Notes: generated by a model from the letters alone, not told the origin. A stretch of DNA of 64,000 bases from Candidatus Epulonipiscium sp. (GCA_012519205.1 JAAYQR010000028.1:4411-68410), one strand, 5' to 3'. Positions 7,142 through 24,730 are shown, counted from the stretch's first letter. Numbers and translations are program-made.

Positions 7142-8305
7142 TTACATGGAATCATGTCGATATCTGTGAATCCATCTTTTTACTAATTCTAGCAAAGAGC
7201 CTTGATAATCTTTTTGTTTACCTTGTTCTTTTTGTATACGGGCTTGTTCGAGTTTTGCTCCTTCATATTCATCGTTAATTTTAAGTGCTTCTTGGATTGC
7301 TCTAGATGCATCTTCTAGTTTTTTCTTTTTTCTATATAGTCTTGCTAATCTGACCCAAGCTAAAATATAATTCTTATTTATTTCTATACTTTTTTGGGCA
7401 TAATCTATTGCCAATTCTTCTTTGTTCCAGCTTTCATATAGATTCGAATATTCCAACCAATACTCTTCTTTCCTAAGCTTAGAAGGGATTTGTTCTAGAT
7501 AGTCTTCTGCTAGTTCGTATTGCCTTTTACCTATATATAGCCTTGATAATCTTATATAACTATCATAATCATCACCTTTTTTAATAGACCTTTTATAAGA
7601 CTCCACTGCCTCATTTTCACTGCCTTGATTGTTATACAGTTCTCCGTAGTAAAACCATATTAGTTTAGAATCCTCCATAGCTGCTGCTTCATTAAGATAT
7701 TCTGCTGCTTTTTCATAATCTGTTTTAAGTATATAGAGTTCTGTTAGATTTAAAAGTATAGACAAATTATTAGATTCTTTTTCATTTGCTTTGGTAAGAA
7801 AATAGGCAGCATCATCATACCATCCTAAGTGCATACAAGCAATTCCCATATTATTATAAACCTTGGAGTTTTCATCAAAGACTATGGCTTTTTTATACCA
7901 CTTTATTGCTTCCTCTGGCTTTTTTAAGGACATAAAATAATCGGCTTTTTCCTTACACTTTTCCCACTCTGCTTTATTTTCCCATTTGAAAATTTCTTTT
8001 CTTAGAGTATCTAATTCAGATTCATAAAAATAATCAATAAGATCTAGAAACCCAATATACTGTTCTGTTATGGATTGCTGCCCATCTTTTATCCTTTTTA
8101 TCTGTCCACTTATATGAGATAAACCTAATTCCACTCTTACCCAGTCTTCTAGTTTTCCCATTAAAAAGTCATCAATAGACTGCTTCCAATAATGGTAGCA
8201 GTGATAATACAATTCTTCTATGGAATATACCTTAATTTTAGTCATATAAAAATAGTATGGTCTCTCCACTGTTTCAGGAGAGACGCTAAGTATTAATGAG
8301 GACAT
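7142..8305 (-). CDS. TPR-repeat protein, last gene of the multi-Hsp70 operon
   Basis: About 7 degenerate 34-aa TPR units, e.g. AIKWYKKAIVFDENSKVYNNMGIACMHLGWYDDA, AVESYKRSIKKGDDYDSYIRLSRLY and AIDYAQKSIEINKNYILAWVRLARLY. Preferred start is ATG 8305 (GAGGTG upstream). The track start GTG 8314 lies 3 nt after the upstream stop. Confidence 0.8.
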   Translation of the reverse strand: MSSLILSVSPETVERPYYFYMTKIKVYSIEELYYHCYHYWKQSIDDFLMGKLEDWVRVELGLSHISGQIKRIKDGQQSITEQYIGFLDLIDYFYESELDTLRKEIFKWENKAEWEKCKEKADYFMSLKKPEEAIKWYKKAIVFDENSKVYNNMGIACMHLGWYDDAAYFLTKANEKESNNLSILLNLTELYILKTDYEKAAEYLNEAAAMEDSKLIWFYYGELYNNQGSENEAVESYKRSIKKGDDYDSYIRLSRLYIGKRQYELAEDYLEQIPSKLRKEEYWLEYSNLYESWNKEELAIDYAQKSIEINKNYILAWVRLARLYRKKKKLEDASRAIQEALKINDEYEGAKLEQARIQKEQGKQKDYQGSLLELVKRWIHRYRHDSM

Positions 8306-8317
8306 CTTATTCACCTC

Positions 8318-10396
8318 TTATAATCGTACCAATTCTGCAATGTCCATTGCTATATTGTCTAAGATATCTGTAAACTTATCTTGTAAATCATAATATTTTC
8401 CATTAGGCTTTGTTAAAGGATCATAGCTCTCTATGCTTAATTTATCCTTTCTTGCTACAACATAAGTTGTTATACTACTTTCCCTTAGCATAGCACAAAT
8501 CTCAGGAACATATTTCCCATCTTCCGTAGGTACATGGGGTGGGGCATCAGTTATAAGTATAAATATGTTTTTACCACTTTTGTCCACTTTAGAAGTTTTC
8601 AAAAGTTCTATACCTGTACCTACCGCTTCCAAAGAAGATTCGGGTATATCCCCTCCATAGGTTCTTGGAATATTTTTAACTTGTCTTTGGAATTTTTCTA
8701 CTTCATTTGTGAAGTTATAGACACTGGGGTTTTCTTTTTCTCCTAAATCACCAAAACCTATAAGGCCCAATTGGAAACCTATACCTTTTCGACTTAGTAT
8801 ATTTGAAAATTCTATGGCCCTATCCTTAACTCCATTAATATAGGTGTCCATGCTCCCTGTAGTATCTATTATAAATACAATATTCATATTTTCGGCAGAA
8901 GTAGTCGAAAGCTCTCTTTTAGGTGGCGGCATAACCTTGGTCCTATCAAATTCTGCTCTTTCAGTTTTTCCTGTAGATAAATCTTTTACAAATACTTCGA
9001 AAAGATTATTTTCATCTATGGCATAGGTAATTTCTAGCTGGGTAGTACCCTTAAGCCCCGTAAGCATTACACTACCTATATATTTTCTTTCTTCTTCATT
9101 ATCTTGCTCCCATTGATAAACATCAACCTGTACCGAAGAAGCCCCGGACATACTGGCAAAGTTTCTATCAGATATCTTTGCCGGAATAGAACTGCCCATG
9201 GGGATAATGGGAATTAATTCTTTTTTCATGGTATCTACATTTATAACCGCTTCCGTACCAAAAATTTGGCGGGTGATTTGCCCCACCTTTACATTGCTGT
9301 TAGGAAGGTGGATGAGATAATTATAAATCGATGCCCCCATGGCTACACTCTTTGCAGGGTCCGTAGCACGATAGGGTTCCTTAATGTATCCCCCAACCAT
9401 TCTTTTTACCATAGGAATTAGGGTTGAACCCCCAACTAAGATTACCTTTGATATTTCGTCGGGTTCCCTTCCTGCCCTTTTTAGGGCCTCTTGTATAATT
9501 TCACGGCTTCTGTCTATATATTTTCTAATTAAGGCTTCAAATTCTTCCCTTGTTAACTCCATTACTAGATTTTTGGGGACCCCTTCATGAATTATAAGGG
9601 GATGAATCCTTATGGCTACTTTGTTAGTTCCTGAAAGTTTCTTCTTGGCTTGTTCCGCTTCTTGCTTTAGTTTTTGAACCACTCTTTTTCTTTCTACAGT
9701 TTCTAACTTGTCTAGATTAATCCCTGTCTCCTTTAAAAAATTCTCTTTCATCAGGCGTATAAGTTCACTGTCAAAATCATCTCCCCCAAGATTCATATCT
9801 CCGACATCAGATAATTCTTGAAATATTTCCTCCCCATTTTTATCTTGGGATACCTTTAGGACACAAGCATCAAAGGTTCCCCCACCTAAGTCATATACTA
9901 AAAGGGTTTGGGCATACCCCTGCCTATACCCATATTCTATTGCCGCTGCTAGGGGTTCTGATAAAAGATGAACATTCTTAAATCCTGCCATCTCCCCTGC
10001 TTTTTTTGTTGCAAATATCTGTCTGTCGTTAAAATATGCTGGGTGGGTTATGACTACTTCATCAAAATTTTCTCCACTTTGATTTTCTGCTGCTTTTTTT
10101 AACTTTTTTAGTATTTCGGCACTTATTTCTTCCGGGAGTTTTTCTAAGGCTCCTACTTTGATTTTTTCCGATTGTCCCATGAATCTCTTGACAGAAATCA
10201 CGGTGCTTTCTGGATATATGATTGCCCCAGCCTTGGCCTCACTGCCTACTATAATCCCTTCTTCTCCATAGCACACAACAGAGGGAAGGATTTCATCCAC
10301 TCCATCTATCTTTACAATTTCCATTTCATCTGTTTTATCTTTATATATGATTGCTGCCGAATTGGTGGTTCCTAAATCTATTCCTAAATAACTCAT
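8318..10396 (-). CDS. Hsp70-family ATPase (NBD + SBD-beta, no lid) fused to a C-terminal von Willebrand A domain
   Basis: Hsp70 motifs IDLGTTNSAAI, VYDLGGGTFDACV and LVGGSTLIPMV. SBD-beta-like LTGLKGTTQLEITYAIDENNLFEVFVKDLSTGK. The last 189 aa (8321-8887) begin MNIVFIIDTTGSMD and contain YGGDIPESSLEA and ILITDAPPH, which is a vWA fold with a MIDAS-like DxTxS. Confidence 0.85.
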   Translation of the reverse strand: MSYLGIDLGTTNSAAIIYKDKTDEMEIVKIDGVDEILPSVVCYGEEGIIVGSEAKAGAIIYPESTVISVKRFMGQSEKIKVGALEKLPEEISAEILKKLKKAAENQSGENFDEVVITHPAYFNDRQIFATKKAGEMAGFKNVHLLSEPLAAAIEYGYRQGYAQTLLVYDLGGGTFDACVLKVSQDKNGEEIFQELSDVGDMNLGGDDFDSELIRLMKENFLKETGINLDKLETVERKRVVQKLKQEAEQAKKKLSGTNKVAIRIHPLIIHEGVPKNLVMELTREEFEALIRKYIDRSREIIQEALKRAGREPDEISKVILVGGSTLIPMVKRMVGGYIKEPYRATDPAKSVAMGASIYNYLIHLPNSNVKVGQITRQIFGTEAVINVDTMKKELIPIIPMGSSIPAKISDRNFASMSGASSVQVDVYQWEQDNEEERKYIGSVMLTGLKGTTQLEITYAIDENNLFEVFVKDLSTGKTERAEFDRTKVMPPPKRELSTTSAENMNIVFIIDTTGSMDTYINGVKDRAIEFSNILSRKGIGFQLGLIGFGDLGEKENPSVYNFTNEVEKFQRQVKNIPRTYGGDIPESSLEAVGTGIELLKTSKVDKSGKNIFILITDAPPHVPTEDGKYVPEICAMLRESSITTYVVARKDKLSIESYDPLTKPNGKYYDLQDKFTDILDNIAMDIAELVRL

Positions 10397-12033
10397 TCTT
10401 CTCCCTCCAGTACTGTCTTATTAAATCGGCTTGGATCAAAGGGCTGCTTAAATCCGCTAGGGGGATACTCTTCTCCGAATCCTAAATCTTCAACTGCACC
10501 TTTTACAAGCCCCCCTTCTTCCTCTACTGCAAGGGTTACCTGCAACTTAGTCTTACCTGATGGCCTCTTTGGCAATCCCTTTATGCCTACATCCCCAATT
10601 AACTTACAATTTTCTATGGTATCTTCTTTATCTATTCTTTCTAGAATTCTAAGTTCTAGAGTTGTCATATCTTCAAGAGTTTTCCCTGATAGAGTAAATA
10701 TATGGCTTTTTTTTGCCAATGAATAGGGGGTCCCCCTTCTTATCATGGTAAAAAAAGATTTCCTTGTGCCATGATCTACTTCGAGTCCAATATCATGGGG
10801 AACTGTAACTTCAAATTCCACTTCTACCTTTTCCGCTTCTAAATCAGGGTGGGTTAACACCCCCATTTTCATAGCTGCATAATAAGTAGCACCCAAGGAG
10901 ATATCTAGAGCTGGTCTTTCTGATGTGTATATTTTATTTTCTTCATTAAATATACCTATTAGCATATCTTTTATCCAAGGCATAGTAGATGAACCCCCTT
11001 CAAGAAGTACCCTATCTATGTCGCTTGGAAGCAGTGCCCCAGTATAAGCTTCTCTTAAAGCTTTTAATACAAGTTTTCTCGTTTTTTCTATAAAGTCATG
11101 GATTAAATTTTCAAATTGCTCCCTTGTTATTTGTTCTACAAATGGCGGAATACAAAAGGTAAAAGGAATTCTAAAGCTTTTGACCCCGGATAATCTTTCT
11201 TTTGTTTCCCTTGCTCTCATTATAAGTTCTGCTTGATTTTCTGGTGTCATAGCATCCTTATTTTGTCCTGTTTTATTTTCTATATATAAATAACATTGTT
11301 TTAGGAGGACTTCGTCGATATTATCTCCCCCGTGGCGTGCTTCCCCTCCTTCGCTTATTACCTGCAGCTTGATGCGACAATCATCTTTTTCGACTACATG
11401 GAATAGAGTAATATCTAAAGTCCCTCCCCCAAAATCAAAAACCATGATTTTTTCATCCTTGGATAATTGATGTCTGAAATTATATGCTAGGGCCGCTGCC
11501 TTTGGTTCTTCTATAAGGCAAATCAACTTATCTTTCAATCCCGCTAATTCACAAGCTCTCATCGTAGCCTTTTTTGCCCCATCATCAAAATCATAAGGTA
11601 CAGAAACTACGCACCCTGCAATCTCTGCATTTGGGTTCATGTTTTTACAATGACTTATCAATTCTTTTAAAATCATTGCCGATATCTCTTCCGGAAGATA
11701 TTCTTTATCTTCTATTTGTATTTTTTCGTTGGTTCCCATTTTTCTTTTGATTGATCTTATGGTGGTTTCCGGGTAAATTTTCATAGACCTATAGGCTTCT
11801 TCTCCTATAACCCATTCCTCTTCGTCCCCTTCTTCTCCCCTATATTGAGCTACTGAAGGAAGAGGAATCTTACCAAATCCATTGCTGATGTCTATGGGCT
11901 CGGGTTTTTTGTTATTATTATCCCAGTAACTTATTACTGAGTTGGTTGTCCCTAGGTCTATTCCTAGGATATACCATTCTTCGGGGAGATCTTTTTGTTC
12001 TTCGATTTGTTTCTTGTATTCTTCCCAGTTCAT
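10393..12033 (-). CDS. Hsp70-family ATPase paralog, lidless (546 aa)
   Basis: Motifs IDLGTTNSVIS, VFDFGGGTLDITLF and LLEGGSSTMPWI. SBD-beta-like IKGLPKRPSGKTKLQVTLAVEEEGGLVKGAVEDLGFGEEYP. 4-nt ATGA overlap with the downstream gene. Confidence 0.85.
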   Translation of the reverse strand: MNWEEYKKQIEEQKDLPEEWYILGIDLGTTNSVISYWDNNNKKPEPIDISNGFGKIPLPSVAQYRGEEGDEEEWVIGEEAYRSMKIYPETTIRSIKRKMGTNEKIQIEDKEYLPEEISAMILKELISHCKNMNPNAEIAGCVVSVPYDFDDGAKKATMRACELAGLKDKLICLIEEPKAAALAYNFRHQLSKDEKIMVFDFGGGTLDITLFHVVEKDDCRIKLQVISEGGEARHGGDNIDEVLLKQCYLYIENKTGQNKDAMTPENQAELIMRARETKERLSGVKSFRIPFTFCIPPFVEQITREQFENLIHDFIEKTRKLVLKALREAYTGALLPSDIDRVLLEGGSSTMPWIKDMLIGIFNEENKIYTSERPALDISLGATYYAAMKMGVLTHPDLEAEKVEVEFEVTVPHDIGLEVDHGTRKSFFTMIRRGTPYSLAKKSHIFTLSGKTLEDMTTLELRILERIDKEDTIENCKLIGDVGIKGLPKRPSGKTKLQVTLAVEEEGGLVKGAVEDLGFGEEYPPSGFKQPFDPSRFNKTVLEGEE

Positions 12034-12154: not shown

Positions 12155-13726
12155 TTATAGTTGGATAATTGCAGTTTGGGTATAATCTGTGGCGGGAAAC
12201 ATTTCTCCGAATCCACAGTCCTTTATGATTACCTCTATTTGGTCATATTGTCTAAATCCTAAGGTAAATTTTAGCCTTAGGGTTCTTGAAGGTCTATCGG
12301 GTAAGCCTTCAAGGTTTATGGTATGTAGGGGTGTTATCTCCCCCCTATCATTTCTTTTGTATACAGGTATACATAATGTGTTTTCCGTTTCCCCATCCAA
12401 TATAAATATTTTTGGTTTGGGTTTTTGCCACCAAAACGTATTTTTTTCTATTAGGGGTATGAAACAAGGTGCCTTTCTAAAGGCTCCATTAATCCCTATA
12501 TCCCAGGTTAACCTATGGTAATCTGTTAATTTAATCATTGTCTCAGGAATGATTCCCAAGTAAGAAGCGGCACCTATACATGCCCCTAGTGCTACCGTCC
12601 CTTCTGCTTCTTTTGGGTATATGATGGAACTTCCTAGAAATTCGTTTTCTAAAAGTTCCTTCATCCAGCTCATTTCAAAGCCGCCCCCAACGGCTATTAT
12701 TTTGTGTATTTCATTTTTATCGATTACTCCGTTGATTGTTTTATTTAACAATTTAGAAATAAATTCTTTAATACTTTGTGAAAATGGCTCTATGAGCCTA
12801 TCCATATCCTCAATAGTAACGGACTTTTGGAAGGCAGGATATACAAAGTTAAAATATAGTTTTGTTGTTTTTTTCTTATAATAGTTTTGGAATAATAACC
12901 CTTTATTTTGATATGCAAAGACCTCAATTTGGTGGAGAATTTCATCACTAATCCTATGTTGAGTTAGCCCTGTTTCTTCACAATAAAAATTAACAAATAA
13001 CTTTTTTAATAGTTTATCAAGTTTTCTTCCTCCCAAGGTTGAATCAAATAAATAAGATAATGTCTCCGCATTAACACTCCCTTCATTGGAAGGATTAACC
13101 CTAATAAGTCCTCCCCGTATCTGTTCTCCCCCATAATCGATAAATAAAACCTTTTCTTCACTGTTTAGAGAACGCTCAAAATACAAATATCTTAAAATAC
13201 ATTCTCTATAACCCATTAGATTTATTAAGGCCTTACTAAGCCCTGCAATTGAAAAAGCTCTTTCTAATTCTTCCCTAGCACTTTCCGAAAAATAATCCGG
13301 TACTGCGGCTATAACCCCTACTATATCTGCATTGGGGTTTAGGTTCTTACACATATCTATTATTTCTTTAATGTATCTACTAAGGAGGTTTGGTATATTC
13401 ATGGGTTTACCACTAATATTTATAAGTTCCTTAGTTCCTAATTTTGATAAGATATTATGAATTGTGATATCATCAAAATATCCCCTATTAAGTAGGGCAT
13501 ATTCACCATAGACCCATTCCCTATTTTCTGGAATGTATTGCATAACCGTTGGTATGGAGGGATTCCCATAACCACCACTCATATCGATTAATTCTGCCTG
13601 CTTCCTATTAACATTCCAAATGGCTATTTTGGTTGCTTTGCTTCCTATATCTATTCCTAGTATGAATTTTGTTTCGTCATTAAAGTCCATTGATGAAATT
13701 TGTTTTTTGAATATTTTCCAGCTCAT
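12155..13726 (-). CDS. Divergent Hsp70-like paralog with degenerate nucleotide-binding motifs (523 aa)
   Basis: Collinear with its neighbours, but phosphate-1 is IDIGSKATKIA, phosphate-2 is FIDYGGEQIRGG and the adenosine motif is AVGGGFEMSWM. The C-terminus LEGLPDRPSRTLRLKFTLGFRQYDQIEVIIKDCGFGEMFP parallels the 546-aa paralog. Confidence 0.7.
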   Translation of the reverse strand: MSWKIFKKQISSMDFNDETKFILGIDIGSKATKIAIWNVNRKQAELIDMSGGYGNPSIPTVMQYIPENREWVYGEYALLNRGYFDDITIHNILSKLGTKELINISGKPMNIPNLLSRYIKEIIDMCKNLNPNADIVGVIAAVPDYFSESAREELERAFSIAGLSKALINLMGYRECILRYLYFERSLNSEEKVLFIDYGGEQIRGGLIRVNPSNEGSVNAETLSYLFDSTLGGRKLDKLLKKLFVNFYCEETGLTQHRISDEILHQIEVFAYQNKGLLFQNYYKKKTTKLYFNFVYPAFQKSVTIEDMDRLIEPFSQSIKEFISKLLNKTINGVIDKNEIHKIIAVGGGFEMSWMKELLENEFLGSSIIYPKEAEGTVALGACIGAASYLGIIPETMIKLTDYHRLTWDIGINGAFRKAPCFIPLIEKNTFWWQKPKPKIFILDGETENTLCIPVYKRNDRGEITPLHTINLEGLPDRPSRTLRLKFTLGFRQYDQIEVIIKDCGFGEMFPATDYTQTAIIQL

Positions 13727-13742: not shown

Positions 13743-15665
13743 CTATTTGCCTGCAACTACATTGGCTTTTAATACGATTTGATTGTTATATTTATATCCC
13801 CTGTTCATGGTCTTGATGATTTCACCCTTTTCAAATCCTTCTTTTACTTCAGCCATCAGAACTTCATGTTCTTTCCCATTAAATTTTTCATGGGTCTTAG
13901 GGTTTATAAATTCAACTTTAAATTCCTCTAGCAGGTTTTCTAGTTTTAGGGTAAGGGCATCAATATTTTCTACATAAGAAGCTACTACCTCTTCATTTTC
14001 ATTTCTAAGTCTAGATACCGAATAGTTTATTATTTCTTCATAGGTGCTCATTTCAAAAAACAGATGCTCCCTAAGATACTTTATCATTTTTTTATTAGCT
14101 TCATTTTTAATTTTTTCTACTTTTCTTCCTAGCCTTTCCATAAGGGCATCATAGCCCTCTTTGATTTCATTATCTAAAAATGCTCCTTTTTGTGTTAGAA
14201 CATCCTCTATAGGGGTATCATACTTGCTAATAAATTTATTGTATATTTCTAAGTCGATTTTTTCGTATTCTTTTTCTATCACAATAGGATCCAACTCTTT
14301 TTTTACATATTCCTCAAATTGATTGATTGTACTCTGGTATAACTCTAGGCTTTCCCTTAGGCTTTCAATTTTTATAGAAATTGTTTCAGAGATTCCTTCT
14401 ATTATAGGGGTATACTCAGCTTCTTCCGGTATATCCTTGTATAATTCCTGATTTTTATTAAACTCTAGAAAAAAATCTACTATTCTTTCTCCGGCTTCTT
14501 TGTTTATATATAAATTTTCGACTATTTCCTTTAGTAGAGCCCCTGGGTTGAACTTTTCTATATATATCTTTAAAAGTTCCTCCTTCAAGGAGCCCCATTT
14601 TTCGGTAAAGTCATTAAAATTATCAATAAACTCTAAGGGCTCTTCGGTTTTGAGCCTAAGCTTCTTTCTTACGGTGATGTCATTAATATACAATCTCATT
14701 CCTTGAAACTTCAGGTAGTTTTCAAATCCCTCTTTATCAAGTAATATTATTTTGTTAGGCTCTTTTTCTGCCTCTTTAAAGAAATCCTCTAACTCTTCGA
14801 TTTCTTTTCCTAAATGCTGATAGGCCTCCCTTATGGTATGTAGAATTTCTTGGATTATTTGCTGTTCACTACTTTCGTACTGCTCTATTTTCATTTCTTC
14901 TTCCAAGGCATTCACTTGAATCTTAATAATTGCCTCCACATTATCTTTTTCTTGTTTTATGGATTCATAGTAAAAATTGGCAGCCTTTCTTAAATGAAAA
15001 TCGTTAAGCCTTTTTATACCCTTCTCTGACCTTTTTGTATAACATTTATAAAGAGGTTCACTCATTTCTTCAATCAATAAGAGATATAATTCTCTTATGA
15101 ATTCTAGTTGTGAATCTTCACCTTTATAGATGTCCATTAATCTATTTCTTGAATTTATTAAAGTTGGGCCTATTTTATAATTAAGCCATAGCTTTTCCAG
15201 TTCATCTAACTGATTTAAGATATTTATCTTTTGTTCTGTAACAAATTTATCCTTTTCTATTTTAATTGGATTGATATTAGCCTTAGGGTCGGCTATTCCC
15301 TGATTTGCCAGCTGGCTTTCTTTAAATTGCTTAAGCTGCGACAAAAGTACGGTGCATATTCCAATCAATATTTCTTTTGCTTTTCCCGTTTTTATGTTTT
15401 CCTCATTATCATAAAATAAGTAGATTGTCCTTTGATAATGATGCATTAAGTGATCAAAGTATTCAAATATCCGCTCATCATATTTGGATAATTTATTTTC
15501 CTCAGTAAGATGATTAAGTATTCTAAGCATTACCTTCATTTTGATATGAAAAAAACATCCCTTTATACTTTGTTCAGTAAATTCATCGAAAGCCTGAAGG
15601 GTTTTTCTCCAGGCTTCGATTAATTCCTTTGACTTTAGCAAAATAGGGGGATACTCCTTAAACAT
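13743..15665 (-). CDS. 640-aa helical / coiled-coil protein ending in a GrpE-like nucleotide-exchange domain
   Basis: The C-terminal 60 aa, KVEFINPKTHEKFNGKEHEVLMAEVKEGFEKGEIIKTMNRGYKYNNQIVLKANVVAGK, align by eye with the GrpE beta domain (F-D/N-P-x-x-H-x-A ... QKGY-x-L-x-x-R-x-x-R-x-A-x-V-x-V). The preceding ~570 aa are E/K-rich helical sequence. Confidence 0.7.
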   Translation of the reverse strand: MFKEYPPILLKSKELIEAWRKTLQAFDEFTEQSIKGCFFHIKMKVMLRILNHLTEENKLSKYDERIFEYFDHLMHHYQRTIYLFYDNEENIKTGKAKEILIGICTVLLSQLKQFKESQLANQGIADPKANINPIKIEKDKFVTEQKINILNQLDELEKLWLNYKIGPTLINSRNRLMDIYKGEDSQLEFIRELYLLLIEEMSEPLYKCYTKRSEKGIKRLNDFHLRKAANFYYESIKQEKDNVEAIIKIQVNALEEEMKIEQYESSEQQIIQEILHTIREAYQHLGKEIEELEDFFKEAEKEPNKIILLDKEGFENYLKFQGMRLYINDITVRKKLRLKTEEPLEFIDNFNDFTEKWGSLKEELLKIYIEKFNPGALLKEIVENLYINKEAGERIVDFFLEFNKNQELYKDIPEEAEYTPIIEGISETISIKIESLRESLELYQSTINQFEEYVKKELDPIVIEKEYEKIDLEIYNKFISKYDTPIEDVLTQKGAFLDNEIKEGYDALMERLGRKVEKIKNEANKKMIKYLREHLFFEMSTYEEIINYSVSRLRNENEEVVASYVENIDALTLKLENLLEEFKVEFINPKTHEKFNGKEHEVLMAEVKEGFEKGEIIKTMNRGYKYNNQIVLKANVVAGK

Positions 15666-15692: not shown

Positions 15693-17378
15693 TTAGTATA
15701 AGTCGTCTACAGATAGCTCCGTCTCTACTCCACTAGTACTCATGCTTTTAGCCATTACCTTAAGCATATTGTCCTGTCCTATATGAAAGATTACTTTTAC
15801 CTTTTCTTCTCCCTTTGCCTTAGACGGGATACCCCTTAGGCTCGTTCCTGCAAGGCGTTTCATACCATCTTCCATTACATAGGAAGCTTTCTTTTCTTCA
15901 CTAGAGGGTCTCATGTTTTCATAAACAACTATTGCCATACTGGTTACATTGTCAAAATTAGTAACCAAAAGTTCCGCCGCCTCTATAGTAAGACCCTCCT
16001 CAGGAATATCTACACCACTTTTTACAATCTCCATAAATCTTCTACCTGATATTTCGAGCCCTAAAGGGTGAATGGTCTTTTCTTGAACAATAGGTCCCTT
16101 TACCGTAGGCATCATAATCATATTGCAGTAATGGGCTGCCCCTTGAGAAATACTTAGGGCGGGACTAATTTTTGATTTAAAGGGTTCTTTTCCAAACTTT
16201 TCTTTTATTTTCTCCCTTATTCTAGGAATCGCAGAGGAACCTCCCACTAAGAATGTTTCATCAATATCTCTAGCTTCTAAGGAGGCAGCTCTTAGACATT
16301 CATCAATACACTCAATACTTCTTTCTATTAAGTCTTCTACCGATTTCCCTTCTAGTTTACTAAATACTTCATCGGAATCCCCTAACTGGTTGATTCTTTT
16401 ATGGTTTAAAAAGGCATCCTTTGTAATTTCCATATTGATATTAATAATTTTAGGTTCCTGGATAAATGGAGCTAAAACAACTTTGGTGGATTTAGCCGAT
16501 GAAAGTCTTTCCTTAGCTTGGTTAGCTACTTGGGCAAGGCGAACTAAAGCTGTTGTTTTTTGCCGTTTTGATGCACCATCATCAGCGTTTAAATCAAATA
16601 GATTAATTTCCTCATTAGTCATTTTTTTAAATTCTTCATAAACCATATCTATTATTATTTTATCTACGTCATTTCCACCTAGATAATTGTCACCAAAGGT
16701 ACTTAGTATAGATATAGAGGGTTCATCGGTATCTGTCATCCTTATATCCAGAACACAAGCATCAAAGGTTCCGCCCCCAAAATCATAAACCAATACCTTT
16801 TTATTTTTTCTTTCGTTGACTGCATATGAAATTGCTGCAGCTGCCGGTTCTAATCTAAGGTATATGTTATCTTCATCAAAACCTGCTAGTTTTGCGGCTT
16901 CTTTTGTCATTTTCTTTTGTTTATCCGTTGAATTGGCAGGAACGGTTATTACGCAGCCTGAGAATTCTCCTGCTATATTTAGTTCCTCTTGAGCATATTC
17001 ATCAGCTTTTTGCTTAAGATACCCTAATATCTCCCCAGTCACCTGCTCGGGAGTAAATTCATACTCTTTATCATCTACCACTATTTTTACTTTTTCTTCA
17101 CTTCCTAGAAGGCGCTTTATCGATAAAACTGTACTTTGCGGATAAATTATAGCTGCTTCTTTTGCCTGTATCCCAAAAATCCTAGATAGTTTATCAGGAT
17201 CATCGGGATCCGTTTCGAATTGTACCGCCGTTGGGAAAACATTGCTTCCATCAATGGGTATGGTTTGTACTTGTCCTTCTTTAAAGTCATACACACTTAC
17301 TACTGAGTTTGTTGTTCCAAAGTCGATTCCTAAAAACAATCCTCTTTCTACATCTAATCCTAGTGTTCCCACAAGCAA
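15693..17378 (-). CDS. Hsp70-family ATPase paralog, lidless (about 560 aa)
   Basis: Motifs IDFGTTNSVVS, VYDFGGGTFDACVL and LVGGSSAIPRI. SBD-beta-like LRGIPSKAKGEEKVKVIFHIGQDNMLKVMAKS. The track start is TTG 17378. GTG 17372 has better spacing to the AGGAGG at 17387-17381. Confidence 0.85.
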   Translation of the reverse strand: MLVGTLGLDVERGLFLGIDFGTTNSVVSVYDFKEGQVQTIPIDGSNVFPTAVQFETDPDDPDKLSRIFGIQAKEAAIIYPQSTVLSIKRLLGSEEKVKIVVDDKEYEFTPEQVTGEILGYLKQKADEYAQEELNIAGEFSGCVITVPANSTDKQKKMTKEAAKLAGFDEDNIYLRLEPAAAAISYAVNERKNKKVLVYDFGGGTFDACVLDIRMTDTDEPSISILSTFGDNYLGGNDVDKIIIDMVYEEFKKMTNEEINLFDLNADDGASKRQKTTALVRLAQVANQAKERLSSAKSTKVVLAPFIQEPKIININMEITKDAFLNHKRINQLGDSDEVFSKLEGKSVEDLIERSIECIDECLRAASLEARDIDETFLVGGSSAIPRIREKIKEKFGKEPFKSKISPALSISQGAAHYCNMIMMPTVKGPIVQEKTIHPLGLEISGRRFMEIVKSGVDIPEEGLTIEAAELLVTNFDNVTSMAIVVYENMRPSSEEKKASYVMEDGMKRLAGTSLRGIPSKAKGEEKVKVIFHIGQDNMLKVMAKSMSTSGVETELSVDDLY

Positions 17379-17387
17379 TTCCTCCTT

Positions 17388-20090
17388 TTATAATAACCAC
17401 CCTACATTATTCTTTTGGTTCTCGCAAATCATTTCATCAAGTATTGACTCAACCTTATCAAATTCTAAATCATGGCTATAAATACTCGCATTGTTTAATT
17501 TTTCGTAAACCTCTTTTGGATTGCCCCTTAGTTTTTTGCAGTTATGGTTATACATTTTGACTTCCGTAAGGATAATATTGTCTTCCTTATCGATTTCTTC
17601 AATATAGTATTCCATACTTTCATTAAAAAACAAAGAAACACAAATTCCATATAAGCCAAAAGCTATAGGATACATTTTCTTTTTATTCAAGGGAAAACCT
17701 TGAATTTTATAACAAAAATAGACTTCCTTCCCCTTCTTAGTATAATGGGTAAAGGGGGTATTCTGTTCTACATACGAAAAATACGGAAATTTGTCTTGTT
17801 TTTCTTTAATAATTGGAAAAATAAATTGATTTCTTTTCATCCATTTAAAAATGGGTAGTATTGTTTCATTTTTTATTTCTATATTCATTGGGATATTTGC
17901 GTAAATATGAATAAGAGATGATCCTAATAGCATATCTTGAGTAAGTTCAAAGTTTTTTTCTAGTTTTTCTAGGGTTTTTGGTGTAACCATCTTCCCATTT
18001 ATCAAAATTTCATAGCTGCAATATAGGATAAAGTCATTTGCCATGGTGGGTTCTTTTTCATATATGTTTTGAAAAGCTTCTTCTAGTTCTTCATTCAAAT
18101 CTCTAATCCAAATCCCCTTTTGCAATATTTTTTTATCTATATCGTAGGTTGGCTTTTCTAGGAGTTTTATCATATGCCTTAAGGCATACCATTCTCCCAT
18201 ACTTCCTTTATAATTCTTAAGAACATAATCTAAAATAACTTCATCGTATTTTCTTTCTAAAATAAGATTATATGCAATCCCTGCAATATATGAATTCTCT
18301 ATGTTTAACTCTATTCCCTTTTTTACTAGTTTAAACTTTGTATCATCCCCTAATGAATCCGAGCCTTGCGCCCAAAATATTGCCTTAGTTACATCTCCCC
18401 CTTCTATTAACGCATTTATTCCGTATTCTATCTGATACGGGTATAAATCCTGTAAATCTAGAGGTTTAAAGTATGGGAATGCCTTTTCTTGTTCTTTATT
18501 AAAACTATAAAGTGTTCCTAAGGAAGCTGATATTTTTTTCCTGAAGGTATCGGACAATGCGCTATTTTCTAAGCATTCCCCCATTATCCTTACAGCCTTT
18601 ATCAAAGATAGATTTCCCATGTTTTTTGGCATTTCATTTATAAAGTATTTAGTAAGTCTAATTAGAAGGCTTGCACTCCTATAGCCTTCATCATAATACT
18701 TTAATAATAAATCTACGGGCACATCTTTAACTAATTTATTCACCCGTATTAAGTCTTTAGGATAAATGCCCTTCTGCCTCTGACCTATACAAAGAATAGT
18801 CAGCTCATCTTTTTCATGGGCAACTGCTTCTATATAAAGTATCTTTTTATCGACTATATATGTAGCCGTTGTTTCTTTTTCGCTTTCGATAACCCATATA
18901 TATTTAATTAAGGGAGATTCTACATAGACTTCATATGTAAAAAGCTGCTCAAATATTGCTTTTTTAAATAAGTTATCGTTTTCGTTTTTCTCTAGTAATC
19001 GCATATATATATCAATATAGTATTTTCCTTGTTTGTTTGCTCTTAAGGCATTTTCCCCAAAGGCAAGAATCTTATTGTAATGAATTTGAAAAAGCATCCT
19101 ATGCTGCTCATCCTTGCATAAGATTGAGTATATATAGGCAGTTAGAGATTCATTAAATTGCTCCTTAAGCATTGCTGATTGTAAAATTGATGTAGGAATT
19201 TTTACCATATCTAGCTTATGAGCTGTTTCTATATATGCCAAATGAACTCCCTTAACATAAAATTTTAAATCTATTATTGCCTCAAATACCTTAAAGGCTT
19301 CCTTATCCCTCTTATTTTCTTTTATATAGGTTGCACATAATAGTACCAAGGCCTCGCTAATACCCCATCTATTATACATTTTTTCTATATAGTCCTTGGG
19401 AATATTGAGGCTTTCTTGATTTTGATTTGCCCAGCTTATAAATAACTTTGCATTTTCCTTATCCAAAACCTCATATTTTATTGCCCATATAAAAACAGCC
19501 CTGACCATATCCTTCATATTATAAAAATAAGTGAAATCAAGACAAAGCAACCGGTATACCTCTGAATATAAAAACGGGCTCCTTAAACCATTTAGAAAAG
19601 CCTTGTCATAATAATAGGCTTGGGTTTTTTCTTCATTAAAAAATTCTCTTTCTATCATGGCTTTTATAAAAAATAATATTCCGCTATTTTCTTCTTCTAA
19701 GCAATCATCAAATATCTTAAGAGACCTTTGTACAAACATATGTCTACCTTTATAATAATCTATCAATGCCTTAAAATAATATAGGATTGCCAAAATGGTT
19801 TTGTCGGTATCATGGTAATATTTTTTGTATTTGAGTAAAGCCTTAAGGGACTTATATGCCTCATCATATCTTTCTAGTTTTATTTTTAACCAAATAAGAC
19901 TTAAAGCAATCCTTATCTCTATTGGATTTTGTCTATTAAGTTCAGATACCAATAGTATCGAATCGTTATATTTCCCCATAAGTCCATAGCTTACTGCATT
20001 AAATAGTCTTACACGATAGGCGATACGATTTTGATTGGATTTGTCTTCCCACTTATCCATTAATGTCTGCATATATCCATTCATTTTCAT
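17388..20090 (-). CDS. 900-aa protein of unknown function, with an alpha-solenoid / TPR-like N-terminal region and a mixed C-terminal region
   Basis: Long uninterrupted ORF whose ATG overlaps the upstream stop (ATGA at 20087-20090). No signal peptide, TM segment or catalytic motif that I recognise. Helical repeat character, e.g. YDEAYKSLKALLKYKKYYHDTDKTILAILYYFKALIDYYKG. Confidence 0.55.
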   Translation of the reverse strand: MKMNGYMQTLMDKWEDKSNQNRIAYRVRLFNAVSYGLMGKYNDSILLVSELNRQNPIEIRIALSLIWLKIKLERYDEAYKSLKALLKYKKYYHDTDKTILAILYYFKALIDYYKGRHMFVQRSLKIFDDCLEEENSGILFFIKAMIEREFFNEEKTQAYYYDKAFLNGLRSPFLYSEVYRLLCLDFTYFYNMKDMVRAVFIWAIKYEVLDKENAKLFISWANQNQESLNIPKDYIEKMYNRWGISEALVLLCATYIKENKRDKEAFKVFEAIIDLKFYVKGVHLAYIETAHKLDMVKIPTSILQSAMLKEQFNESLTAYIYSILCKDEQHRMLFQIHYNKILAFGENALRANKQGKYYIDIYMRLLEKNENDNLFKKAIFEQLFTYEVYVESPLIKYIWVIESEKETTATYIVDKKILYIEAVAHEKDELTILCIGQRQKGIYPKDLIRVNKLVKDVPVDLLLKYYDEGYRSASLLIRLTKYFINEMPKNMGNLSLIKAVRIMGECLENSALSDTFRKKISASLGTLYSFNKEQEKAFPYFKPLDLQDLYPYQIEYGINALIEGGDVTKAIFWAQGSDSLGDDTKFKLVKKGIELNIENSYIAGIAYNLILERKYDEVILDYVLKNYKGSMGEWYALRHMIKLLEKPTYDIDKKILQKGIWIRDLNEELEEAFQNIYEKEPTMANDFILYCSYEILINGKMVTPKTLEKLEKNFELTQDMLLGSSLIHIYANIPMNIEIKNETILPIFKWMKRNQFIFPIIKEKQDKFPYFSYVEQNTPFTHYTKKGKEVYFCYKIQGFPLNKKKMYPIAFGLYGICVSLFFNESMEYYIEEIDKEDNIILTEVKMYNHNCKKLRGNPKEVYEKLNNASIYSHDLEFDKVESILDEMICENQKNNVGWLL

Positions 20091-21310
20091 CCCCCTAAAC
20101 CAATCCTATCAACTTTCAATACCAAACTATCTTTTATTCTATATTTTTTATTGCTAACCATAAGCTCGATTATCGTTTCGCAATAAGGTTCCTTGTTCAT
20201 CCCCCATTTATCCCAACCCGTTAAGCGAACTCTAAATGGAATTTCTGCCTTTTTTGATATAAGATATTTTTTAGCCTCAAAACCAATCCAGGAATCCTTA
20301 GGAAAGATATGAACCATGGCATCTTTCCCGGTTTCGTTTTCAATTATTAGCACTCCCACATCATCTTGTTTATAGGATTTTTTAGAAAGACTTATATTAA
20401 AAACTTGCTTTTGTGTTACTATAACCTTATATGTGCTTTCCATATCCTCATGATGAATCTTGATATATCCAAAGTTAATTTTGTTTTTAATTTTATTGGG
20501 TATAATTTCATACTCAATAATAAGTTTATTTTCTTTAAAATCCTGGGCTGTAAATATGGACTTAGATAGTTTTATCCAAGACTCATTGGTTTCTAGTTCT
20601 ATATCAATCAAACCCCATCCTTTTTTGTGCAGTATTATCCCTTTTTTGTTTGGCCTCTTATCCTTAGGAGATAGTTCTACTTTCCTTATATCGTCCTCTA
20701 TCCATATGGTTGGGGGTTGCTTATTGTTTGTTAATCTTAAAAAATATTCCAATGCCCAGTCCTTTTGTGAAATTATAATAATTTGGTTATATATTTTTAC
20801 ATATTCTAAGTTCTGACTTTGATAAAGCCAAGACAAAAATCCCGGTGAACAGAATATTTCATTTGCCCGTTCCCAATTATTTTTTGCAAACTCTGTGAAT
20901 TCCTCTAGGCTGGATACGCTATTGGTTTCATCAATAATTAACATTGGTTTTTTTATTCCGATATGGTTAGAAATCTCCTGTTCTCCTCCATTTGATTCTA
21001 TTATCCAAGTATCTTCATATGTATTACCCCAAAACATATTTTTACTATCAATACGATATATGATAACCTGCACATTATCCTTCCATTCTGCAGAATTAAA
21101 ATTTTCAGGTGTAAACTCTGCATATCCTTTTTTAGAAAAAACTTTACCCTTTAAGGGAGTTCCCCCTTTGTTTTCTACTCTAAATGCCCCTGTATATATG
21201 GATTGTGATGCAATTGTTATTCTTAGATTATTAATAGGTACAAAAAGTATCGGAGGGGTTTTACTATAATCTTCCCTATTAACTTGATAAGAAGTATTTT
21301 CCAATGTCAT
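20087..21310 (-). CDS. 407-aa protein of unknown function, first gene of the multi-Hsp70 operon, beta-rich (Ig-like/beta-sandwich-looking repeats)
   Basis: Uninterrupted ORF with no signal peptide or TM segment. Alternating beta-strand-like patterns, e.g. LRITIASQSIYTGAFRVENKGGTPLKGKVFSK and VGVLIIENETGKDAMVHIFPK. GGAGG abuts ATG 21310, so TTG 21304 may be the real start. Confidence 0.5.
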   Translation of the reverse strand: MTLENTSYQVNREDYSKTPPILFVPINNLRITIASQSIYTGAFRVENKGGTPLKGKVFSKKGYAEFTPENFNSAEWKDNVQVIIYRIDSKNMFWGNTYEDTWIIESNGGEQEISNHIGIKKPMLIIDETNSVSSLEEFTEFAKNNWERANEIFCSPGFLSWLYQSQNLEYVKIYNQIIIISQKDWALEYFLRLTNNKQPPTIWIEDDIRKVELSPKDKRPNKKGIILHKKGWGLIDIELETNESWIKLSKSIFTAQDFKENKLIIEYEIIPNKIKNKINFGYIKIHHEDMESTYKVIVTQKQVFNISLSKKSYKQDDVGVLIIENETGKDAMVHIFPKDSWIGFEAKKYLISKKAEIPFRVRLTGWDKWGMNKEPYCETIIELMVSNKKYRIKDSLVLKVDRIGLGG

Positions 21311-21338
21311 CCTCCTTTACTTTAAGGTATTATTAATT

Positions 21339-21368
21339 ATTATATATCAATCTACTTTAATTTTCCAA
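21339..21368 (-). promoter_or_regulatory. Candidate sigma-A promoter of the multi-Hsp70 operon
   Basis: Minus strand reads TTGGAA (21368-21363), 18-nt spacer, TATAAT (21344-21339), about 30 nt upstream of the first gene. The context is AT-rich, so specificity is low. Confidence 0.3.
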
Positions 21369-22661: not shown

Positions 22662-23858
22662 TTATTTTCCTGAAATATAATCAATAAACTGGCGAGCCGT
22701 CCTTCCAGAGCGGCCATTATGCCACATTTCCCATTGTAGCGCTTTTTTTCGCAATTCTTCCCTTGGGATATCTATTTGATGTTTGGCCGCTAAACCCTCT
22801 ACTATTTTAAGGTATTCTTCCTGACTTGGGGATATATAAGTAATGCTTATGCCAAACCTATCTGCCAAGGATATCTTTTCTTGAACAGAATCAGAAATAT
22901 GTATTTCTTCAGTGTTTTGCCTATCATTCCACGTTTCTTTTATCAAATGTCTTCTATTAGATGTAGCATAGATTAAAACATTATCCGGTTTTTTCTCTAT
23001 ACCCCCTTCGATGACAGCTTTCATATGCTTATATTCTATTTCAAATTCTTCGAAGGATAAATCATCCATAAATATTATAAAATATCTATTCCTATTTCTA
23101 ATAAGGGATATTATTTTATTAAAATCAATAAGTTGATTTTTGTTTAATTCAATTAATCTAAGACCCCTGTGGGCATATTCATTTAAAAGAGCTTTAACAG
23201 AAGAAGATTTCCCTGTCCCCCTATCTCCAAATAACAAAACATTATTTGCACTTTTCCCTTCTAGAAAACCTTCTGTGTTTTCCTTTAAAATCTTTTTTTG
23301 TTCCTCATAGCCTATTAAATCCTTAAGTCTTATGTTGTCGGGATTTTCTATACCTTTTAATCCGTCTTCCCACCTAAATGCCCTATATTTCCCCATCATA
23401 CCGCAGCCATTTTCATAATAATACCGTGCCAATTTATTAATGATATCGTCTATGGCGATATTATCTTTTTGGGATGCATTTAAAAATGATAAGGGCTCTA
23501 TTTTAAGTTTGCTTGCTATTATATCCCAATCTATATGGGCAAATTCACTCAAAATTAACAAATCCCTTTTCACAACCATTTCTATTGCTGTATCCCTTTT
23601 ATTATTTTCTTTTTCACAGGAAAGACTAAAAATATTTTCATCCTCAATTACTAAATGAATTATATAATTTTTCCACAAAGAATCTCTTAAGTTATATTTA
23701 AAACCAAATTCAAGAAGCTGTGAGATAATTTCTGAAAAATCATTTTGTAATTTGGTACCATCCTTGTTTTGCTGTTTCAAATCCGTAATAAGTCTTTGGG
23801 TTGCACTTATTAGCTTATCCTCCAAAAGACTTCTATAAATCAATAAATTATTTATCAT
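22662..23858 (-). CDS. P-loop ATPase of the DUF815 (AAA-like) family
   Basis: 398 aa. Walker A LLFGDRGTGKSSSVKALL and Walker B-like YFIIFMDDLSF. Size and layout are typical of Firmicute DUF815 proteins. Confidence 0.65.
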   Translation of the reverse strand: MINNLLIYRSLLEDKLISATQRLITDLKQQNKDGTKLQNDFSEIISQLLEFGFKYNLRDSLWKNYIIHLVIEDENIFSLSCEKENNKRDTAIEMVVKRDLLILSEFAHIDWDIIASKLKIEPLSFLNASQKDNIAIDDIINKLARYYYENGCGMMGKYRAFRWEDGLKGIENPDNIRLKDLIGYEEQKKILKENTEGFLEGKSANNVLLFGDRGTGKSSSVKALLNEYAHRGLRLIELNKNQLIDFNKIISLIRNRNRYFIIFMDDLSFEEFEIEYKHMKAVIEGGIEKKPDNVLIYATSNRRHLIKETWNDRQNTEEIHISDSVQEKISLADRFGISITYISPSQEEYLKIVEGLAAKHQIDIPREELRKKALQWEMWHNGRSGRTARQFIDYISGK

Positions 23859-23943: not shown

Positions 23944-24660
23944 TTAAATATGTTTAAACCATCGTGATAAGACAAATATTATAAAAGAATGTAGCGGGAT
24001 AATAACCAACCCTGCAATTATCCTTCCAGGTAAGAATGCCAGAAATCCCTTTTCATAAGTAATTGCAAGCACAAAGGTATTTATTATTAGTGAAATTATA
24101 AAATACCCTACGGTTACTACAAATAATATCTTATCAAATGAATATAGGCTATCTTTTGATTTTACGATTATCCCTAATATAATAGGAAGCACTATAAATG
24201 CTAGAGCAACTAACCCATATAGTATCAAAATAAAATTCGATATCTCAATATTTTGGGTCATAGGAACATATATTGCCCCTACCGCCATAATAAGGCTAAA
24301 TATAACATTTATAATATGAAAATTAATCTTGACTTTATGGTTTCTAATTACCCAATAAATTAAACCCGGTAATAATCCTCTCAAAATTGCCCCTACTGTC
24401 ATCCCAGGGATATAAGGCCCACCCATGGGATTAATGATAAATCCCAAGATATCGCTTACCCCCCCGGTTAATGCTCCAGCAATAGGTCCAAAGAGTATAC
24501 CACTTATTATAACGGGTATATCCCCAAATCCTATGCGTAGAACCGGGAACCCTGCCAAGGGAATCATATATGAGAAAAATCTAGTCAATATAATGCTAAT
24601 TCCTGAAAGCAGTCCACAAGAGACCAAAATCTTTGTATCAAAAACTTTTGATTTATTCAA
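23944..24660 (-). CDS. folT: ECF transporter S component, folate family (FolT)
   Basis: Polytopic membrane protein directly downstream of a THF riboswitch. I prefer TTG 24660 (AAGGAGGGAG 6 nt upstream) over the track start 24702. Confidence 0.75.
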   Translation of the reverse strand: MNKSKVFDTKILVSCGLLSGISIILTRFFSYMIPLAGFPVLRIGFGDIPVIISGILFGPIAGALTGGVSDILGFIINPMGGPYIPGMTVGAILRGLLPGLIYWVIRNHKVKINFHIINVIFSLIMAVGAIYVPMTQNIEISNFILILYGLVALAFIVLPIILGIIVKSKDSLYSFDKILFVVTVGYFIISLIINTFVLAITYEKGFLAFLPGRIIAGLVIIPLHSFIIFVLSRWFKHI

Positions 24661-24730
24661 ACTCTCCCTCCTTTCTCTAGTATGATATGACATGAGTAAC
24701 ACACCACACTAAAGAAAGGGGTTCTTTAAT

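Follow-up and report, generated by a model that had tools for sequence, protein, structure and literature searches.

The DNA described here comprises 64,000 nt of a metagenome-assembled genome (MAG) of Candidatus Epulonipiscium sp. (GCA_012519205.1, JAAYQR010000028.1, nt 4411 – 68410), and this whole stretch is referred to below as the window. The subject is a run of eight genes, A to H, all carried on the minus strand (Table 1), and in particular the two leading open reading frames (ORFs), A and B, which precede several genes for Hsp70-like proteins. They lie in different frames, and the ATGA at nt 20090 – 20087 is common to the end of A and the start of B. An initial annotation of the window described them as two long, uninterrupted and translationally coupled ORFs without a recognisable family; the coordinates and the overlap are confirmed, but both ORFs match a Pfam family, DUF5717 (a domain of unknown function, DUF), far above threshold. 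The G+C content of the region is about 31% and shows no deviation, and by our own arithmetic the chance of a stop-free run of 900 codons at this composition is roughly 1e-32.

Gene A matches positions 8 – 292 of the 875 positions of PF18984 (DUF5717_N; 148.7 bits, E = 2e-43), and B continues along the same profile from position 329 to 869 (118.2 bits, E = 3e-34). Residues 602 – 882 of B match positions 4 – 290 of 306 of the C-terminal family, PF18983 (86.5 bits, E = 2e-24), the gathering score of both Pfam families being 25 bits. The 1299 aa 'DUF5717 family protein' of Defluviitalea saccharophila (P0004) is collinear with the pair in BLASTP alignments, its residues 1 – 398 pairing with A (51% identity) and residues 417 – 1299 with B (53% identity). 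Because A and B cover complementary parts of the profile and are collinear with a fused protein, they are almost certainly the two halves of one DUF5717 family member, split by gene fission, and not the two separate proteins first proposed. A holds the N-terminal third and B the remaining two thirds of what is usually a single chain of about 1140 – 1330 aa. An NCBI protein of 898 aa (P0001, 'MAG: hypothetical protein GX308_09975 [Epulopiscium sp.]') is 100% identical to B. In annotation, both 'hypothetical' genes deserve the label of N- and C-terminal fragments of a DUF5717 protein and are not orphans.

The family is large. An exhaustive hidden Markov model search returned 3119 clusters (at 50% identity) with E ≤ 1e-3 and 1264 with E ≤ 1e-30; a word-index search with a divergent family alignment recovered only 5 proteins. 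Apart from the window's own 898 aa protein, almost all of the best 150 clusters are single chains of 1137 – 1302 aa, and the best 120 of 991 further matches have the architecture PF18984 plus PF18983 with no other domain, so that no fusion to an informative domain was found among them. The named members are proteins of Blautia, [Clostridium] aminophilum, Anaerobium and Lachnospiraceae MAGs. The family is not modelled in NCBIfam, and no mention of DUF5717 or its Pfam accessions was found in the literature searched, where 'DUF5716', the name of a partner family described below, occurred in one paper, in an unrelated cancer context. The suspicion, voiced in the initial annotation, that proteins of this kind are catalogued only as domains of unknown function is therefore correct for both ORFs. 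DUF5717 is already catalogued, and the variants confined to a small clade are its split form and the operon expanded by several Hsp70 genes.

Four related genomes (L001 – L004) were retrieved from the GTDB species set by a narrow-alignment search; L002 is an isolate of D. phaphyphila, L003 and L004 are MAGs, and a more distant contig, L007, was also compared. The DUF5717 gene is fused in L001 (1333 codons) and at a further locus, L009, and split in L002, L003, L004 and L007. Each of the four split junctions has its own stop codon, Shine-Dalgarno (SD) sequence and ATG, and the junction sequences differ. In L007 the halves are separated by a 107 nt spacer and B is only 23% identical to that of the window, while the start MN(G/A)Y is common to the window, L003 and L004. 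Since the same linker is split in four other genomes or contigs, each time with a separate stop, SD and ATG, the split is on comparative grounds both genuine and maintained. Column occupancy is below 0.5 for A305 – 407, which includes the third beta-sandwich of A (see below), and for B1 – 40, that is, on both sides of the junction, which places the break, as read from the alignment, inside a clade-specific insertion made up of this third immunoglobulin (Ig)-like module and a linker. In a neighbour-joining tree with the fused Lachnospiraceae-type proteins of about 1180 aa as outgroup, the fused proteins of 1300 aa form one clade nested among the split forms, and one fission followed by one re-fusion is tentatively the most economical scenario.

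An AGGAGG sequence touches the first ATG of gene A and lies 6 nt before TTG 21304, and its better spacing makes the latter the likely start. For B, the second ATG, nt 20084, preceded by a GGGGG SD, is probably the real start, favoured both by the SD spacing and by the 898 aa length of the identical NCBI protein. Starting there, B would begin 2 nt past the TGA of A, but the coupling is tight either way, and the two halves of DUF5717 are read as being expressed from two tightly coupled cistrons. As noted initially, B stops close before the first Hsp70 gene, with an SD at the stop: its TAA (nt 17390 – 17388) is followed by AGGAGG (nt 17386 – 17381), and the ORF of gene C opens at TTG 17378, GTG 17372 being the likelier start of this gene. 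The promoter-like site upstream of A agrees with the consensus at 10/12 positions and is the top sigma-70-like match within nt 5000 – 22000, a likeness to consensus only, since sites of this kind are equally numerous in shuffled sequence. A terminator-like hairpin is found at nt 5987 – 5964. The intergenic spacing from A to H, between -4 and 121 nt, fits a single operon of about 14 kb.

Table 1. Features of the DUF5717 operon (positions counted from the first nucleotide of the window; AF2, AlphaFold2; pLDDT, predicted local distance difference test)
Feature	Position (nt)	Strand	Basis and remarks
Promoter-like site upstream of gene A (TTGGAA, 18 nt, TATAAT)	21339..21368	-	Consensus match
Gene A, N-terminal fragment of DUF5717, 407 aa	20087..21310	-	Pfam PF18984; probable start TTG 21304
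A residues 28-120, Ig-like beta-sandwich 1	20951..21229	-	AF2, pLDDT ~85-90
A residues 135-193, five-helix bundle	20732..20908	-	AF2
A residues 201-300, Ig-like beta-sandwich 2	20411..20710	-	AF2, pLDDT ~90
A residues 318-400, third beta-sandwich, clade-specific insertion	20111..20359	-	AF2, low pLDDT (50-70)
Fission junction: ATGA overlap, GGGGG SD, second ATG	20082..20090	-	Sequence reading
Gene B, C-terminal fragment of DUF5717, 900 aa (898 aa from ATG 20084)	17388..20090	-	Pfam PF18984 and PF18983
B residues ~3-383, TPR-like alpha-solenoid, first part	18942..20084	-	AF2, 22 helices, pLDDT 80-93
B residues ~385-452, small beta domain inserted in solenoid	18735..18938	-	AF2, six strands, pLDDT 78-90
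B residues ~459-753, alpha-solenoid, second part	17832..18716	-	AF2, pLDDT 84-93
B residues ~776-899, C-terminal beta-sandwich and helical tail, within PF18983	17394..17765	-	AF2, 8 strands, 3 helices
Gene C, lidless Hsp70 with intact ATPase motifs, tail ELSVD(D/E)LY	15693..17378	-	Pfam HSP70, 1e-71, positions 2-493 of 599
Gene D, 640 aa, C-terminal GrpE-like domain	13743..15665	-	Pfam GrpE, 4e-12, residues 507-637
Gene E, DUF5716-type degenerate Hsp70	12155..13726	-	PF18980 DUF5716_C, 1e-28, 100.5 bits
Gene F, lidless Hsp70 with intact motifs, C-terminal GFGEEYP	10393..12033	-	Pfam and motif search
Gene G, lidless Hsp70 fused to VWA domain	8318..10396	-	Pfam HSP70, 3e-93; VWA_4, 6e-10
Gene H, N-terminal 'HN' domain (residues 1-196) and TPR repeats	7142..8314	-	Pfam TPR; hhalign

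The AF2 model of A (mean pLDDT 77) contains the three beta-sandwiches that had been read from the sequence in the initial annotation, the third at low confidence, together with a five-helix bundle that went unmentioned there. The first two sandwiches are homologous to each other (hhalign probability 92%). Foldseek matches A to ASH/PapD-like Ig arrays of ciliary central-pair proteins, to titin and to integrin legs, and a fold search of viral models (BFVD) gave generic Ig/BACON proteins only. In an alignment of 156 DUF5717 sequences, from which the conservation figures given here are taken, the most conserved 25-residue block of A is A126 – 150 (mean 0.53). Conserved within the bundle are F138, A149, F153, F158, Y174, E188 (95%), F190 and L191, followed just after it by K197 (100%). 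An NGGE motif (E110) in the first sandwich is conserved in 92% of the family and W232-G233 of the second in 96 – 100%, while the third sandwich is absent from the Lachnospiraceae proteins of about 1180 aa and lies outside the Pfam profile match.

The model of B (mean pLDDT 83), built on a 13-sequence alignment and numbered as the ORF minus 1, is dominated by a TPR-like alpha-solenoid of about 700 residues. The TPR-like hairpins that had been assigned to the start of this protein are thus present, but they are not limited to the start and occupy about 80% of its length. The small beta domain that interrupts the solenoid is among the well conserved parts of the family, and in the C-terminal part of the model an eight-strand sandwich (775 – 847) precedes the three terminal helices. 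When searched against the PDB with Foldseek, B matched only large TPR scaffolds, namely Ski3, Naa15, Ctr9, IFT-A and APC/C (E 2e-9 to 1e-5). By sequence, TPR_19 is the only such family to match, and weakly (E 0.097, 13.4 bits against a cut-off of 25). Conserved positions in the C-terminal part of B are mostly hydrophobic or glycine (N866, 96%), and the window departs from the consensus at several of them. The C-terminal sandwich was also considered as an Hsp70 substrate-binding domain (SBD) supplied in trans, but this was rejected at the level of profiles, the hhalign probability against the alignment of the operon's Hsp70s being 0.2%.

Catalytic features are lacking in both halves. There are 65 family positions with at least 85% conservation, almost all of them G, F, Y, W, P, A or L, and the only conserved polar residues also found in the window are E110, E188, K197, N279, E177 and N866. 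No cluster of His, Cys, Asp or Ser occurs among the conserved positions of the alignment; Walker A, HExxH, HPD, GxSxG and CxxC motifs are absent from A and B, and neither protein has a Pfam or NCBIfam match to an enzyme family. A sequence search of the PDB with a profile of seven family members gave nothing at E ≤ 1, and Foldseek with the predicted structures, a check that had been proposed at the outset, gave no enzyme fold, only the TPR scaffolds and Ig arrays. Neither A nor B belongs to a PHROG family, and PADLOC-DB 2.0 has no match for A and only a spurious one for B (MTase_II, E 0.001, 15.7 bits). Transmembrane segments are likewise lacking in both (maximum Kyte-Doolittle 19-residue mean 1.2), so that the earlier reading of the two ORFs as free of transmembrane helices and enzyme motifs is upheld. 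From this negative evidence and the predicted fold class, we infer that DUF5717 is non-enzymatic.

The order of the expanded operon is A and B (DUF5717), C (Hsp70), D (GrpE-like), E (Hsp70/DUF5716), F (Hsp70), G (Hsp70-VWA) and H (TPR), and it is complete in L002 – L004, L007 and L009. Three further loci (L005, L006 and L008) represent a minimal, Lachnospiraceae-type module, which consists of a fused DUF5717 gene, a DUF5716 gene of 400 – 420 aa, a gene for a protein of about 275 aa and, in many cases, a fourth gene (about 390 aa). The last was tried as a counterpart of the GrpE-like D and rejected (hhalign probability 0.1%). The N-terminal domain of H is homologous to the stand-alone protein of about 275 aa (hhalign probability 99.6%), and is called HN here; it has no Pfam family and represents an uncatalogued third core component beside DUF5717 and DUF5716. 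In a scan of metagenomes, 80 loci were fetched (about 27 distinct after dereplication), and neighbours were counted over the loci with room for the gene in question. DUF5716 lies directly downstream of DUF5717 in 70/70 loci and HN comes next after DUF5716 in 63/63, while the fourth gene is present in 39/57 and a CobD/HisC-like aminotransferase gene lies divergently upstream of DUF5717 in 33/73.

DUF5717 leads a chromosomal module in all sampled loci of Lachnospiraceae type and Defluviitalea type, and an obligate partnership with DUF5716 and HN is highly probable. The initial annotation had supposed that the two genes, as leaders of a 14 kb operon, define the system, and the linkage of an Hsp70-like gene in 70/70 metagenomic loci and in all expanded operons agrees with this. 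Its choice of an Hsp70 machine as partner holds in that an Hsp70-like protein is always linked, but the comparison of loci identifies the primary ancestral partner as the degenerate DUF5716 protein (gene E) and not the motif-intact Hsp70s. Judging from the gene content, the clade of the window has enlarged the module by three motif-intact lidless Hsp70s, a GrpE-like factor, a VWA domain and TPR repeats.

Proteins C, F and G keep the motifs GIDxGTTNS and DxGGGTxD (GIDFGTTNS and DFGGGTFD in C) and are classed as lidless because their chains end after SBD-beta. Gene E is homologous to the gene found directly after DUF5717 in Lachnospiraceae, and its phosphate-2 loop reads DYGGEQIR in place of DxGGGTFD. 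The pattern DYGG(E/Q)(Q/E)IRG is present in 5/6 gene E sequences (the window and 4/5 orthologues), the divergent L007 copy being the one that does not match. In 24 dereplicated DUF5716 proteins of Lachnospiraceae the phosphate-2 loop (DxGGGT) is gone, as are about 90 residues of the nucleotide-binding domain (NBD), and what is retained is an SBD-beta-like end (LPxRPxxxTRL...) and a family-specific C-terminal motif, DLGFGExFP. With the loop degenerate or deleted, and some 90 NBD residues lost in the Lachnospiraceae forms, DUF5716, the ancestral partner of DUF5717, is probably not an ATPase. A, B, D and H all lack a J domain (no DnaJ match in Pfam and no HPD tripeptide), and Pfam and NCBIfam find no GTPase or P-loop domain in the eight operon proteins. 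The acidic tail of C (nt 15693 – 15720, minus strand) is kept in the window, L007 and L009, and resembles the EEVD tails by which eukaryotic Hsp70s dock to TPR proteins; this suggests a candidate docking site of TPR or VWA type.

The operon genes fall into two tiers of divergence. Compared with L007, proteins C, F and G are 72 – 75% identical and A, B, D, E and H 23 – 33%; among closer relatives the corresponding values are 87 – 93% and 45 – 69%. The pattern is consistent with a machine whose specific components, A, B, D, E and H, have co-evolved. The CobD/HisC-like class I/II aminotransferase gene of the window (nt 21501 – 22628, plus strand) is divergent from the operon, and the same gene flanks L001, L003, L004, L005, L008 and L009, being kept among relatives that are only 17 – 20% identical. 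No plasmid match to the module was found, and the sole match in phage collections, MT835719.1 (L090, 'UNVERIFIED: Bacteriophage sp.', a faecal scaffold), is bacterial DNA. It carries a truncated DUF5717 gene, DUF5716, HN and the fourth gene beside genes for MCP, Mn-catalase and FeoB, and these neighbours show that at least that end of the scaffold is bacterial chromosomal, so a phage origin was rejected. With the aminotransferase neighbour kept, no plasmid match and a bacterial source for the only phage match, the module is apparently chromosomal and vertically inherited and not a mobile island.

Several other features of the window may be mentioned briefly. A type I-C CRISPR-Cas locus (nt 328 – 5293, minus strand) with cas3 (HD and helicase), cas5d and csd1/cas8c runs off the left end. 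A tetrahydrofolate riboswitch (68.9 bits; nt 24732 – 24840, minus strand) lies upstream of a gene for an ECF transporter S-component (nt 24702..23944), which is followed by a gene for a DUF815 AAA-type ATPase (nt 23858..22662), and a cobalamin riboswitch (119 bits; nt 58193 – 58371, minus strand) precedes a gene cluster starting at nt 58090. A protein of 1171 aa (nt 32176 – 35691, minus strand) combines a CspB prodomain with several S8 subtilase stretches, as in a CspBA-like germination protease fusion, and its presence suggests that the host forms spores. The genes sbcD and sbcC occupy nt 38749 – 43486 (minus strand), next to a tRNA at nt 38561 – 38634. The 1182 aa ORF within this region (nt 42297..38749) had been a candidate for a second DUF5717 gene by its length, but it is SbcC, a coiled-coil protein that probably accounts for the local dip in G+C content (0.289) and the strong AT skew at 40 – 42 kb.

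With an enzymatic role disfavoured, DUF5717 is best interpreted as a non-catalytic scaffold or adaptor of an Hsp70-like complex, a reading suggested by the lack of catalytic features together with the Ig-like modules, the bundle, the TPR-like solenoid and the C-terminal sandwich of the models. The proposal that the two proteins are the client, sensor or effector of the Hsp70 machine is retained in part, the enzymatic effector being the option that finds no catalytic fold, motif or residue. In the proposed mechanism, the solenoid and the conserved helical bundle would dock the Hsp70-derived subunit or subunits and the HN protein into a stable complex, while the Ig-like end, the C-terminal sandwich or both would bind a target or site. 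In the clade of the window, DUF5717 would in addition recruit the motif-intact lidless Hsp70s, cycled by the GrpE-like protein, and after fission A and B would reassemble non-covalently. The scaffold or adaptor role, taken singly, is about an even bet, and the statement as a whole (one split DUF5717 protein, its module of partners and this role) is assigned a probability of roughly 0.55.

Several points weigh against this interpretation. The scaffold role is based on fold class, the lack of catalytic features and gene linkage, and the interaction is a predicted one. The Foldseek template modelling (TM) scores are low (0.1 – 0.3), as expected for flexible repeats, and the likeness is at the level of fold only; the assignment of TPR by sequence is below threshold (TPR_19, see above), and model confidence is low for the third Ig module and at the extreme termini. 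The scenario of fission and re-fusion leans on a neighbour-joining tree without support values, and the 80 metagenomic loci come mostly from human-gut Lachnospiraceae and include near-duplicates. Lastly, DUF5717 could just as well be a dedicated client, given that its gene is always found next to a chaperone-like one.

This last possibility, in which the adjacent Hsp70-like proteins handle the folding, assembly or disassembly of DUF5717, is the strongest of the alternatives, although it is considerably less probable than a scaffold. Chaperones paired with a single client are exemplified by HscA and IscU, and DUF5717 is transcribed first, the gene directly downstream of it always coding for an Hsp70-derived protein with an SBD-beta-like domain retained. 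In the clade of the window three motif-intact Hsp70s and a GrpE-like factor are encoded alongside, and DUF5717 evolves fast, as structural cargo might. In most of the family, however, the sole Hsp70-like partner has lost the phosphate-2 loop and about 90 residues, so that an ATP-driven folding cycle is unlikely and a stoichiometric complex fits better. Moreover, a J-domain protein that could deliver a client is not encoded, and TPR solenoids typically serve as binding platforms, not as substrates.

Somewhat less probable again is a self-assembling element, such as a cytoskeletal, envelope-proximal or spore lattice, the polymerisation of which would be nucleated or remodelled by the Hsp70-like proteins. 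Ig-like arrays and solenoids are common in large assemblies, and the Foldseek matches include axonemal ASH-domain proteins, titin, IFT-A and APC/C; the host, which has a CspBA-like germination protease (nt 35691..32176), is probably a spore former, and the module occurs throughout the sampled Lachnospiraceae-type loci in housekeeping-like contexts. Against this, A and B have no transmembrane segment, signal peptide or cell-wall-binding domain and no sign of oligomerisation, and the loci compared have no conserved sporulation or division genes around them.

An origin in conflict or anti-phage defence, with DUF5717 as the fast-evolving sensor or effector of a system such as those reported by Kaur et al. 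2020, is improbable. The operon has a thematic likeness to the GAP1-N2 systems (PMC7159879), A and B diverge far faster than the operon's Hsp70s, F and G match PADLOC PDC-M61B weakly, and the type I-C cas locus begins only about 0.7 kb past the terminator-like site (cas3 start at nt 5293). On the other hand, the operon has no GTPase or GAP1 component and no toxic effector domain, and A and B fall into no PADLOC or PHROG family. The constant aminotransferase neighbour, the uniform architecture among the matches listed and the absence of plasmid copies point to vertical housekeeping inheritance and not to a defence island, and cas genes are absent next to the operon of L007, the only relative whose downstream flank was read, where a GGDEF_2/HTH_30 gene follows. 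Finally, it is scarcely credible that A and B are a frameshifted pseudogene or an assembly error of a single DUF5717 gene, as might be supposed from their different frames, the MAG origin of the window and the single chains of most family members, because the split recurs in the same linker, with different junction sequences, in the D. phaphyphila isolate and three further MAGs or contigs, and both halves stay intact across divergence down to 23 – 27% identity.

The functions of the many truncated or degenerate Hsp70 paralogues of bacteria are an open question (PMC13580251), to which this locus offers a compact, testable entry. If DUF5717 is a scaffold, a family of more than 3000 clusters (50% identity) would be strictly linked to an Hsp70-derived pseudo-ATPase, with many members in human-gut metagenomes, and one clade provides a natural expanded version, with three motif-intact lidless Hsp70s, a private nucleotide-exchange factor and no J protein. 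The natural fission also marks a domain boundary that can be used in expression and interaction experiments. A more speculative proposal, which as a whole falls well short of an even chance, is that the three proteins DUF5717, DUF5716 and HN together constitute a hitherto undescribed machine of the cytoplasm, derived from Hsp70 and present throughout the Lachnospiraceae-type bacteria sampled, among which are many abundant species of the human gut. An ATPase-dead Hsp70 relic would sit permanently on a giant Ig/TPR scaffold, the Defluviitalea/'Epulonipiscium' complex would be a self-contained multi-Hsp70 chaperone with three active lidless Hsp70s, a GrpE-like factor of its own and a VWA domain but no J protein, and DUF5717 would replace the J protein as the recruiter of substrate or site. 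If true, this would be a bacterial counterpart of the repurposing of Hsp70 paralogues of the type seen in the ribosome-associated complex (RAC) or in Hsp110.

Among known proteins, the closest are the single-chain members of DUF5717 itself: A and B together cover the profiles of this family end to end, are collinear with these members and have a DUF5716 gene nearby. The window differs from them in having two cistrons and an extra third beta-sandwich before the break, and its DUF5716 gene is not adjacent, an Hsp70 gene and a GrpE-like gene intervening. Outside the family, the best Foldseek matches to A (E 3e-14 to 1e-10) are the ASH/PapD-like (MSP-fold) Ig domains of hydin-type ciliary central-pair proteins and PDB 2qsv, but the fold is a generic Ig-like one, identities are 6 – 12%, and protein-protein binding is the most that can be implied. 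The best matches to B, the TPR subunits Ski3, Naa15, Ctr9 and those of IFT-A, together with Cdc16/23/27 of APC/C, are all non-catalytic platforms that hold partners; with TM scores of 0.1 – 0.26 and 8 – 14% identity the resemblance is one of fold class and not of homology, and none of them has the inserted beta domain or the C-terminal sandwich of B. The TPR co-chaperones Hop, CHIP and Tom70, which clamp acidic EEVD tails, are similar in that a TPR-like solenoid is found beside Hsp70 genes and that Hsp70 C ends in an acidic tail. They differ in having 3 repeats as against a solenoid of about 700 residues, the TPR signal of DUF5717 is below threshold by sequence, and the minimal Lachnospiraceae module lacks an Hsp70 bearing such a tail.

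In the GAP1-N2 systems, which are defined by a TRAFAC GTPase with N-terminal zinc ribbons and a GAP1 component, an FNIII-repeat protein fused to TPR occurs together with Hsp70, GrpE and an NBD-only Hsp70 (PMC7159879). Analogous components are present in the operon described here, namely an Hsp70, a GrpE-like protein, another Hsp70 of reduced form, a VWA domain and a protein in which beta-sandwich repeats are joined to TPR, but it is without the GTPase, GAP1 and effector domains, and its inheritance looks vertical. The nearest working analogy, in the sense of 'works like' only, would be the ribosome-associated complex, in which a lidless atypical Hsp70, Ssz1/HspA14, sits permanently on zuotin, a helical scaffold by which the active Hsp70 Ssb is recruited (PMC13580251); repurposing of the Hsp110 type would come second (PMC13580251). 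In both RAC and the DUF5717 module a degenerate, lidless Hsp70-derived subunit is found with a large, mostly helical, non-enzymatic partner, and in the clade of the window active Hsp70s are encoded alongside. Unlike DUF5717, RAC has no Ig-like modules, and A, B, D and H show neither a J domain, an HPD tripeptide nor similarity to zuotin; the lack of a J domain excludes membership in the RAC- or Hsp110-type families, and any tie of DUF5717 to the ribosome would be by analogy only. What the two appear to have in common is the arrangement, a degenerate Hsp70 relative held by a helical scaffold that may bring in active Hsp70s.

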